Assembly (NCBI RefSeq): GCF_003334255.1
Contig: NZ_QOWU01000125.1
Origin: Escherichia coli
GTDB lineage: Bacteria > Pseudomonadota > Gammaproteobacteria > Enterobacterales > Enterobacteriaceae
DNA length: 3,229 nt
Strand: one strand, 5' to 3'
Shown here piece after piece: positions 1-3,000 of this stretch (the first letter of the stretch is position 1; each line of letters begins with the position of its first letter). The position numbers are program-made.

Positions 1-3000
1 ACCTTCATCGCAGCACCTTCCTGTTTTTATGCCCCATGAAAAAAAACGGCAGGCAAAACTCCTGTGCCTGCCGTCATACTTCATGTCACCTTCAGCAATT
101 AAAACTCGAAGTTCACACCAACGTTCCAGGAGGCATCCCCATCACTGAATGCCACGCCTGCTTTCGCTGCGGTCTGCTCGTTGAAGCGGTAACCCACACC
201 CACTGCCAGTGCCTGCTGGTCGCTGTAACCACCAACCGCTGCCGTGGCGTTGAATTTACCCACACTGTACGGCTGGAACAGACCTGTCAGGGCCGCAGAC
301 TGTGCTGCTGCACGCTTCATTTCCTTGTGGTTTTCATTAATCTGGCGCTGCTGGCTGTCCAGACGTGCTGAATGTTGCTGCAGCGTACGGGTATTGGCTG
401 CAATCGCCTTGCTGTTTTTCTCAATGGATTGCGTGTTACGGGTGACACGGCCATCAATGGCACCAACTGCTGCATCAATACGGTCAGTACGACCAGACAG
501 GGCCACCAGACCATCGTTAACAGAAATGGTGTTCTTTGCACCTTCTGCACGGGTCAGGGTGCCATCAGAACTCACACCAACCAGTGTGCGGGATTCGACT
601 TTTGCAGCTGTTGCAGCAGCCGCAGCATCAATCTTGTCGGTACGCGTGGTCAGTTCACCAAGATTTTTCTTCTGCGCTTCAAGCTCGCCTTTCTGAGCAT
701 CAAGCTTGCCTTTCTGAGCTTCAAGCTCATTCGCAACAATGGTGGAGTTGGCGGACTCCCATGCCAGATAGCGCTGCAAAGATACGCGTTCTTTTATTTC
801 ATTCGGTGTTACAGCCACATTTCCATACTCATCCAGGCCGACGTTGGTTTCCATCTGCTGGATTGCTGAAACGCGGTTGTACAGGTCACGGATATTCTGT
901 TCTGTCAGGAGGTTTGTCTTAATATCATCAGTTTTCCCTGATGCCGCAGCCTTCATGAAATCATGAACTTCTTTATCATAAACAGTAAATGTTGTTGAGC
1001 CGTCTGCGGAGGTAATTGTAACATTACCATTGCCATCTATTTTACTGAGAAGTGGAATCGGCTTATTTCGCTCTTTTTCCACATCACCTAAGCCACCCCA
1101 ATCAATATGTGCCGTTTTATTATCTGGGTTATAATATACTTTATAAATACTCCCAGCGCCGTTCTGAGCATTTAAAGCAGAATAAGATTGCTCAGCAGCC
1201 ATAATATCAAAGCTAACCCCAAACAAAACACCTGCCATTGCCGCAGACAAAACAGCCTTTGTAAATTTCTTGCTCATGTGGTATACCCTATAAAATTATC
1301 TGTATACAAATAAAACAGTTCAACATCGGATATATAAAGAAAATCTGATGTCTCGCCGCTATCATGAGCTTACTCCTGAAGAAATTCCGAATTTTAATAT
1401 GAAGTTTTTCGGAATTTCCTTACTATAACGTCGGTGATATCACGTTCGCGAAGGGATATCCGCATTACGACTGGCCTGCCACTTATGCTGTCTCTTTATT
1501 CATCAACAATTTGTATACGGTTACATATTTAATTGTGAAGTTAGTCACAAAAAGAAGAAAGTCAAATAATCAAATTGTGCTTAACTGTTTACATCAGCAC
1601 AATCTGATGACCATTGAAGGACGCACTAAATTATTTTCAGCAATCCCTCAGCCTACGAAAATTCTGTATTTGATAATTGTTTTATTTGCTCTCTTTTTAT
1701 GCAGCCATTCTGTTGCTTATAAAAAAGCACCACTATCCGCGCCCTCATCTCAATATCTTTGTCGCCGGATAAAAATAACTATCAACCACAAGTATCATGC
1801 TCTCGGGGAGCGCGCACTCCCCCACTTTTTTTATCCCTGACAGGGTCAGGAGGCCGTTGCATCTCCTTTAATTATCATTGCCAGATTATTTCCTCGACCT
1901 GAGTATTCTTTATTTAGCCATAGCTTTGTAGCAAGGGGCTGGAGCGCCCCTCTTTTTTTCACCTGTCAGCCATGCCGACCTTATACGCCAGTATAGCTTC
2001 CGCATCACCCAGCGCTTCAATCTCTTTTTTCATCGTGCGCTGTCTGACATGAATTTCCAGACCTTTGGTAAACATCGCCTGCTCTGCAGCAGCACTCAGA
2101 GCAATCAGTGTTTCAGCGTCCATCGGTACGTCATTATTGTCCGCATCCGTCCAGAAAAACTGCTCCGGCAGTTTCCCCGCTTTCGCTGCCGCCACCGACG
2201 GCTCAAGACGCGTCTGCGTTGACTTCCCGTAGTCCCATTTACGCCCATTGTGCTCAAACGTGTAGTTCGCCGCTTCCATCGCATTACGCCAGGCATTAAT
2301 TTCCACCTTTTTCCGTTCACGTGACTGTGTTAAAGCTTCCGGCGGTTCTTCATACGGCTTAATCTCTCCATACCTGCCGGAAATTAAATCAGTAAAAAGT
2401 TGTCGTCCGTGATTTTCCGGATCATTTTCTGACGCAGTAAAAGGAAACCATTGCTCACCAATTTTTATCTCACAGGAAATATTACCCAATCGAGTATATA
2501 CCGCCCCCCTGACGTCTGTTACAACAATCGCCATTCTTCCCCCTGTATTACACAATGCGTTGAAATAACGTTAAGTTTGTTGTCATGGTCTGCTCATCGT
2601 ATCCGGGAGCACCCAGACTTAAAGCAGACACAAAAGCCCGCCATGTCCCCGGGATACTGTTTCCGGCATTATGAACAATCGAGAACGTGGGCGAATACGT
2701 GACGCCAACGCGGTAAAGAATCGCCACTTCAGTAATTTTTTCGCCATTGATATTCTCTTTAATTGCACTTTCACTTTCGAGAGTCGATATCGAACCAAAT
2801 AAGAAAGAGCCAACCGCATATTTTTCTGTGGATACATTACCATTCCTGCCTGCTGCCCCCTGCGGCCCTGCCGGACCACGAGGGCCTGCCGGGCCGGTTT
2901 TCCCCTGCGGCCCCGCGGGACCTGTTGCTCCGGGTTCGCCTTTGTCCCCTTTTGGCCCCGGGGCACCTTTGGCTCCGGCTGCACCAGCCGGTCCCTGAGG

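Follow-up and report, generated by a model that had tools for sequence, protein, structure and literature searches.

In a 3,229-nucleotide stretch of Escherichia coli prophage DNA (contig NZ_QOWU01000125.1 of assembly GCF_003334255.1; the window), eibA, the gene for an immunoglobulin-binding trimeric autotransporter adhesin (ATG at 1277, minus strand), is preceded by a perfect inverted repeat at 1381-1418. From comparison with other eib upstream regions, we tentatively propose that the working element at this site is an RcsB-type operator, a box (Box 1) that takes in the eib-distal arm of the repeat and that would form, together with a second box (Box 2) and an AT block, the core of an eib regulatory module. 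The repeat would then be the local form of a stem-loop-prone spot in a cis-regulatory module of about 150 bp that, in these lambdoid prophages, would stand before each adhesin gene of the eib family. The 11-N16-11 symmetry itself is probably not the working part; the likelier candidate is the 14-bp pseudo-palindrome TAAGGAAATTCCGA, i.e., the eib-distal arm plus four bases (1422..1409 on the eib strand). An RcsB-type dimer, alone or with a partner such as RcsA, would bind Box 1 and, in most types of upstream region, Box 2; bound across the AT-rich stretch, it would activate or de-silence eib on envelope or surface signals. The eib-proximal arm would be a lineage-specific mirror copy of the right half and spacer of Box 1, adding a half-site (TCGGA) and enabling a DNA or RNA hairpin while being dispensable for the family-wide function.

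As far as our literature search went, the reading of the eib upstream region in terms of RcsB boxes appears to be new. The window corresponds to prophage P-EibA of E. coli ECOR-9 (AF151091.1; 99.7% identity, reverse orientation), and the inverted repeat as an observation is already known, on record since 2000, because AF151091.1 carries a 'stem_loop' (3777..3814) that maps exactly onto window positions 1381-1418, the same 38 bases. The eibA downstream terminator is likewise entered as a stem_loop in AF151091.1. In the P-EibC, P-EibD, and P-EibE records (AF151674-6), a stem_loop stands at the equivalent site, about 100 nt before each eib start, where the annotated element is a different 29-nt AT-only hairpin, TAAATTTA-N13-TAAATTTA. 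These annotations were made without a stated function in the GenBank records of Sandt and Hill 2000 (AF151091, AF151674-6).

Putative RcsB-type boxes upstream of eib genes

Besides type A, that of the window, the eib upstream regions comprise types B1-B3 (including eibC, eibD, and eibE), C, D, E, F1, and F2. They are homologous to type A only over the last ∼145-165 nt, where the types are almost collinear from a conserved TAnnnT hexamer to the start codon (alignment A1; 19 upstream sequences, 7 types). The 23 invariant columns of A1 lie in three clusters: columns 6-19, which are Box 1 (window 1422..1409); columns 26-38, which are the AT block and fall inside the loop of the repeat in type A; and columns 50-63, which are Box 2 (window 1378..1365). 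The centers of the two boxes are 44 bp apart. On the eib strand, Box 1 reads TAAGGAAATTCCGA in type A, TAAGACAAATCCTA in B1, TAAGATAAATCCTA in B2, TACGATAATTCCTA in C, TAAGATATTTCCTA in D, TAAGATAATTCCTG in E, and TAAGAAAAATCCTA in F. The perfect repeat is confined to type A, with a comparably strong one in B2 only.

The box bound by RcsB homodimers, as defined by structure and electrophoretic mobility shift assay (EMSA), is TN(G/A)GAN4TC(T/C)NA, with a lower-affinity class that has (A/C)CTNA as its right half (PMC7913699). For RcsAB, the consensus quoted in PMC3950696 is TaAGaa|tatTCctA, and the box is TaAGaatatTCctA (Wehland and Bernhard 2000, as quoted there). Box 1 is a perfect match to the homodimer motif in types B, D, and F (TAAGA-N4-TCC(T/C)A); types A, C, and E each deviate from it at one position. 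Box 2 reads T(C/T/A)(G/A)GAATA(T/C)CCT(G/C/T)A in types B, D, E, and F, all of which fit the lower-affinity class (e.g., TCGGAATATCCTGA). With one sequence per subtype, the positions that the motif specifies in both boxes have a mean entropy of 0.22 bit in register; in 14 shifted registers the value is 0.52-0.92 bit, and the N positions of the motif stand at 0.74 bit. Conservation is concentrated on the bases read by RcsB, (G/A)GA and TC(T/C), and the variable columns are the N positions.

Several eib boxes differ from Salmonella boxes listed in Table 2 of PMC7913699 by a single unspecified base. TAAGACAAATCCTA resembles the ymiA box TGAGACAAATCCTA, TAAGAAAAATCCTA resembles the yciG box TAAGAAAACTCCTA, and TCGGAATATCCTGA resembles the EMSA-confirmed nlpD box TCGGAATATTCCCA (PMC7913699). 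The box of the window, TAAGGAAATTCCGA, resembles that of the Salmonella rcsA promoter, TAAGGTTTATCCGA, and has the same half-sites (TAAGG....TCCGA). The motif TAAGANNNNTCCTA occurred exactly once per locus in 41 loci and lay upstream of eib wherever its position was checked. Like known RcsB/RcsAB boxes, the eib box is a pseudo-palindrome of 14 bp in which a 4-bp A/T spacer separates (G/A)GA half-sites, and RcsB-activated genes typically carry such boxes upstream of the transcription start. The putative eib box differs from known ones in that A5 is G in the window and in that the repeat extends past the box into a mirror copy which RcsB boxes lack.

Several observations weigh against this proposal. 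The window holds four one-mismatch matches to the RcsB motif where 2.9 are expected, which is not above chance. Position 5 of the type A box is G instead of A, and AGG in place of AGA is reported to diminish RcsB binding (PMC7913699). Box 2 carries two mismatches in type A, as it does in type C. The upstream types are homologous, and the comparison therefore covers few independent lineages. Among the papers searched, none linked Rcs to eib and none contained both eibG and RcsB. Eib expression rises at 37 °C, an uncommon behavior for genes that depend on RcsA. Judging the positions of the boxes would require a mapped promoter. Finally, the two arms of the repeat covary at N positions of the box, and the pairing itself may be under selection, which a model of RcsB binding leaves unexplained.

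We also considered a second full RcsB box contributed by the gene-proximal arm (TCGGAATTTCTTCA, 1390..1377). It was rejected because the central C of its right half-site is replaced by T, and a substitution at that position abolished binding (PMC7913699). This arm, which falls in the variable AT-rich part that separates the AT block from Box 2, holds one RcsB-like half-site (TCGGA) and no full box.

Of the operator proposal, the match to the motif, its in-register conservation across types, and the restriction of the perfect repeat to one lineage are seen in the sequences, and RcsB binding, the direction of the regulation, and the position of the promoter are inferred. Somewhat doubtfully, one may go on to suppose that the Eib family is wired directly into the host Rcs envelope-stress phosphorelay through two RcsB-type boxes 44 bp apart in a portable module; in such a case, the eibA 'stem-loop' would be Box 1 plus its mirrored copy. 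Eib proteins make commensal and Shiga-toxigenic E. coli resistant to serum and enable them to bind immunoglobulins and to adhere in a chain-like manner. What is otherwise known of the control of their expression is the trans-acting pair IbrAB and a set of empirical growth conditions (static culture, stationary phase, and 37 °C). To this, the comparison adds a conserved portable module before all eib types, which combines a pair of RcsB-like boxes with an AT block, a second hairpin, a palindrome and, in most types, an upstream open reading frame (uORF), and it yields Rcs control as a testable hypothesis. If true, Rcs wiring would provide a concrete cis basis for the dependence of Eib expression on surface and growth state, and an example of a moron cassette that carries operators of a host regulon.

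Geometry of the inverted repeat

The two arms, 1381-1391 and 1408-1418, are exact reverse complements that cannot be extended by Watson-Crick pairs on either side, and together they span 141 to 104 nt upstream of the eibA ATG, within the 681-nt intergenic region (1278-1958). A first-pass annotation of the window had described a perfect 11/11 repeat with an AT-rich 16-nt center, unlikely to arise by chance in some 680 bp, and all of this holds; it had placed the repeat upstream of the adhesin promoter region, which is supported as far as the adhesin gene itself is concerned. It is the sole perfect inverted repeat of at least 11 nt with a loop of at most 40 nt in the window, and such a repeat was present in 1.0% of 681-nt intergenic sequences and 3.8% of whole windows simulated with a first-order Markov model. 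Positions 1409-1418 of the eibA-farther arm are bases 5-14 of Box 1 (10 of its 14 bases). The coordinates of the repeat and of the other leader features are collected in Table 1.

Table 1. eibA and the elements of its upstream region in the window (A1, alignment of eib upstream sequences; SD, Shine-Dalgarno sequence).
Feature	Position	Strand	Sequence and remarks
eibA	99..1277	-	392-aa open reading frame (ORF); annotated AAF63234.1; presumed target of the upstream module
uORF	1288..1365	-	25 codons, MIAARHQIFFIYPMLNCFICIQIIL followed by stop; strong AGGAG SD at 1373-1377, 7 nt before ATG
Predicted proximal promoter	1323..1295	-	TTGAAC (1323..1318), 17 nt, GATAAT (1300..1295); from promoter scan
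Near-palindrome	1299..1310	-	TTTGTATACAGA; perfect 12-nt palindrome TTTGTATACAAA in several types
Second hairpin (hp2)	1324..1350	-	CATCAGA-N13-TCCGATG; conserved loop AGATTTTCTTTAT, then U-rich UUUGUUUGUAUAC
Box 2 homologue	1365..1378	-	CAGGAGTAAGCTCA; degenerate in type A; overlaps uORF SD and ATG
eibA-nearer arm	1381..1391		GAAATTCCGAA on +, TTCGGAATTTC on eib-sense strand; A1 columns 37-47
Spacer/loop	1392..1407		16 nt, TTTTAATATGAAGTTT; 14/16 A/T; most polymorphic part within type A
AT block in loop	∼1394-1402		A1 columns 26-34; T26, A28, A30, T31, T32, A34 invariant (T.A.ATT.A)
eibA-farther arm	1408..1418		TTCGGAATTTC on +, GAAATTCCGAA on eib-sense strand; A1 columns 10-20
Box 1	1409..1422	-	TAAGGAAATTCCGA; RcsB/RcsAB-box-like 14-mer, conserved upstream of all eib types
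TATAGT hexamer	1422..1427	-	TAnnnT in all types: TAATGT, TACAGT, TACACT, TAGGGT

The arm symmetry had also been said to fit the site of a dimeric DNA-binding protein, an activator or anti-silencer. What survives of this idea is that one arm overlaps the RcsB/RcsAB-like box, but the 11-N16-11 arrangement is not the geometry of one dimer. The arm centers are 27 bp (∼2.6 helical turns) apart, a spacing that is unfavorable for a single dimer. An operator for one helix-turn-helix dimer over both arms was rejected, since it needs centers ∼10-11 or 21 bp apart; the arms are, besides, not common to eibC, eibD, and eibE. As judged from the alignment, the conserved symmetric unit is the 14-bp box with its 4-bp spacer, which takes in one arm only.

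An intrinsic terminator was considered too, as the repeat is likewise a hairpin between two transcription units. It was rejected on the 16-nt loop (3-8 nt being expected), on the G-C content of the stem (4 of 11 pairs), and on the lack of a U-tract on either strand, the tail that follows the repeat being UUCAGGAG in the sense direction and CUUACUAU in antisense. The terminator scan did not flag the repeat on either strand.

Pairing of the arms and a hairpin in the transcript

The stem_loop annotations imply a different role, namely an 11-bp hairpin (13 pairs with G-U) in an RNA that runs through the region, which could act as a 5' stabilizer, govern access to the ribosome-binding site of the uORF, or form a weak barrier to read-through from the tail-fiber operon. 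We consider this explanation unlikely. The 38-mer folds at -10.9 kcal/mol (z -4.3) on the minus strand and -11.8 kcal/mol (z -2.9) on the plus strand, and the eib-sense (minus) RNA can add two G-U pairs, giving a 13-pair stem; over the folds evaluated, the range was -10.9 to -13.8 kcal/mol, with z from -2.9 to -4.3. Stem-loops of differing sequence are annotated at the equivalent place before eibA, eibC, eibD, and eibE. Over the 11 column pairs of the repeat in the 7 types, 74% of the cells are paired, compared with 65.5% in shuffles (none of 500 reaching the observed value) and 21-59% in slid controls, and five column pairs change on both sides. Type B2 has a 10/11 repeat in the same columns with three pairs switched relative to type A (G-C to A-T, A-T to T-A, and T-A to A-T). 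In types D and F, the gene-nearer arm holds the SD-like GGAA of the conserved uORF and the other arm holds UCCU.

Nevertheless, transcription across the repeat has to be presumed, and if TAnnnT were a -10 element, the transcription start would fall inside the 5' arm. The hairpin is not terminator-like, as described above, and Rfam gave no match to it, or to anything else in the whole window, up to E = 1. Folding beats dinucleotide shuffles only in types A, B2, and F1, and not in B1, B3, C, D, E, and F2 (six of nine subtypes). In the fixed register, 7 of the 11 positions pair in B1 and B3, 6-7 in C, 5-6 in D, 4 in E, and only 3 in F. Most of the pairing and covariation signal is contributed by types A, B2, and B1. 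Wobble pairs favor neither a sense nor an antisense RNA (14 vs. 18 cells), and among the type A sequences the flanks are at least as well conserved as the arms. Other hairpins can form at this spot, such as an inner hairpin in B1 and a pairing of Box 1 with Box 2 in D and F. On the aligned sequences, then, there is a recurrent hairpin tendency at this spot and no single conserved structure. The first-pass annotation had offered, as an alternative, a stem-loop in a proposed plus-strand RNA: a stem-loop agrees with the GenBank annotation and with some covariation, but the repeat lies outside any plus-strand RNA that starts at the sole plus-strand promoter-like site (1542-1570).

Spread of the type A module and a neutral origin of the repeat

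The exact repeat pattern was found in eight IMG/VR contigs, in all placeable cases 141-104 nt before an eib-like ATG, and the eib-like products behind it are 37-99% identical to EibA. The upstream DNA that surrounds the repeat (the type A module) keeps 97-99% identity for at least 330 nt. Among 5,426 complete E. coli genomes, the type A module occupies 71 places in 27 genomes, with a median of three copies per genome, and the Prokaryotic Genome Annotation Pipeline (PGAP) annotates nothing there. A scan of metagenomes returned 67 loci, all of types A-D apart from three chance matches, with micro-variants and no new types; it raised the number of different type A leaders to 36. Scanned for the conserved leader pattern, the GTDB species representatives yielded nothing but an unrelated match in Paenibacillus, and the module appears to be confined to particular E. 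coli strains. The expectation that the repeat is conserved upstream of eib paralogs was borne out in part: it stands unchanged before many eib-like genes but is absent before eibC, eibD, and eibE. The type A module is of recent origin and is passed on as one unit.

In a comparison of cassettes (loci L005-L012 and L013-L037 from IMG/VR; H1-H27 from E. coli genomes), the upstream module together with the start of the signal-peptide coding region (MSKKFTK...) showed ∼98% DNA identity, far above that of the passenger domains, whose protein identity falls as low as 37%, an indication that prophages exchange the regulatory region and the signal peptide as a cassette by recombination.

These data also bear on the explanation that the repeat has no function of its own, being a quasi-palindrome perfected by template switching or a small inverted duplication of the right half of Box 1, neutrally carried along as the type A module spreads by recombination between prophages. 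A near-identical module stands before divergent genes, and its invariance therefore reflects recent common descent. Across the 36 type A sequences, arm polymorphism (two singleton variants, at 2 sites in 22 nt) is no lower than that of the flanks (∼10% of sites), and the natural variants concerned, L013 and L105, each break one pair uncompensated; the loop has three variable sites and one indel. As the arms are no better conserved than the flanks, the within-type data are uninformative. Several other types have no comparable repeat, which again accords with a neutral origin. We nonetheless regard such an origin as quite unlikely. A repeat of this length is expected in only ∼1% of such regions; the analogous repeat of B2, with different bases in the same columns, speaks for repeated origin or for maintenance; and no shuffle and no slid control reaches the observed covariation.

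The IbrAB pair

It had further been held plausible that the repeat is an operator for the activator pair IbrAB, in which case IbrB would bind both arms. In 2002, Sandt and colleagues reportedly found that all four eib genes of ECOR-9 (eibA, eibC, eibD, and eibE) are activated by IbrAB. IbrB is a ParB-like protein. However, the repeat is absent before eibC, eibD, and eibE of ECOR-9, which have the different stem-loop there, and the link to IbrAB is unsupported because these genes carry other sequences at this spot.

Sites of the ParB Box A and VirB kind are near-perfect inverted repeats, ATTT(C)C(A/T)(C/T)-n-(A/G)(A/T)G(G)AAAT, with the half-site consensus (A/G)(A/T)G(G)AAAT (PMC6410309). Both arms with their flanks do match the half-site (AAGGAAAT, 1421..1414, minus strand; AAGAAAT, 1379-1385, plus strand), so that, as in the VirB and P1 ParB Box A systems, GAAAT/ATTTC half-sites form an inverted repeat before a horizontally acquired AT-rich virulence gene, and the ParB-like VirB is an anti-silencer acting at inverted repeats. 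VirB sites, however, need ATTTC..n..GAAAT with a single-nucleotide spacer, and single half-sites are unbound in vivo (PMC6410309). In the window, the half-sites point outward (GAAAT...ATTTC), with a spacing of 28 nt where VirB sites have 1 nt. The regions before eibC, eibD, and eibE have neither these half-sites (TAAGACAAATCC) nor the repeat, although these paralogs are among the genes said to respond to IbrAB. A VirB/ParB Box A site was rejected on its arrangement and its absence from type B, and an IbrAB operator at the repeat is highly improbable. If IbrB does bind DNA in this region, elements common to all types would be better candidates, such as the palindrome TTTGTATACA(A/G)A.

Other elements of the eib leader

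The near-palindrome (Table 1) is the best-conserved element close to the start codon, being present in nearly all eib upstream types, and it overlaps the predicted -10 hexamer GATAAT. It is a candidate for an operator common to all IbrAB-responsive genes.

Of the promoter options, TTGAAC-17-GATAAT is not conserved in the other types. The TAnnnT hexamer, whose final T doubles as base 1 of Box 1, could be a -10 element, but it lacks an acceptable -35, and one metagenome variant reads TATAGC. Within the AT block there are -10-like hexamers, TATATT or TAAAAT in the sense direction and TAATAT or TAATTT in antisense, and the commonest polymorphism of type A (C or T at 1401) toggles CATATT/TATATT. 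None of these three options (TTGAAC-17-GATAAT, TAnnnT, and the AT-block hexamers) has a convincing -35 conserved across types, and the promoter scans gave ambiguous results.

The TAG stop of the uORF falls within the ribosome-binding region of eibA, 10 nt ahead of its ATG. The uORF start codons of types A, D, E, and F align in one column, and the peptides of these types share QIFF; in B and C the uORF is absent or only three codons long. The uORF SD is AAGAG in 3 of the 36 type A variants, and in one variant a 1-nt insertion shifts the uORF stop onto the eib ATG (ATGA).

The second hairpin, hp2, lies between Box 2 and the eib start, with homologous sites in loci L059, L036, L003, and L025. All 11 sequences retain its inner stem, some of the changes in it being compensatory, and the stems are much longer in types D (15 bp, CCGAAATACATCAGA/TCCGATGTATTTCGG) and F (GCAACG..GTGTCAG/CTGACAC..CGTTGC). 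It looks like an attenuator or terminator because a U-rich stretch follows it, and the terminator scan left it unflagged because its 13-nt loop exceeds 8 nt.

Remaining features of the window

Upstream of the eib leader follow orf-191A, a tail-fiber assembly gene on the minus strand that ends at 1959, and then a collagen-repeat tail-fiber gene. The region 1520-1958 has no feature annotated by PGAP and occurs only with type A eib loci. On the plus strand, antisense to eibA and the tail-fiber genes, there are strong intrinsic-terminator-like hairpins with T-runs at 1805-1832 and 1934-1958, the latter abutting the stop codon of orf-191A, and the eibC locus has a like hairpin in the same orientation and position (L002, 3937-3964, plus strand). 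These hairpins suggest an unannotated transcript from the eib upstream region towards the tail-fiber assembly gene.

Two coding repeats were also noticed. In eibA, three 21-nt tandem repeats (656-728, minus-strand coding) encode the heptad-like LEAQKGK/LDAQKGE/LEAQKKN of a coiled-coil stalk. At 2848-3061 (minus-strand coding), the tail-fiber protein encoded upstream of orf-191A has collagen-like Gly-X-Y repeats with a 9-nt periodicity and a 45-nt higher-order period; collagen-like repeats are a known feature of prophage tail fibers in pathogenic E. coli.

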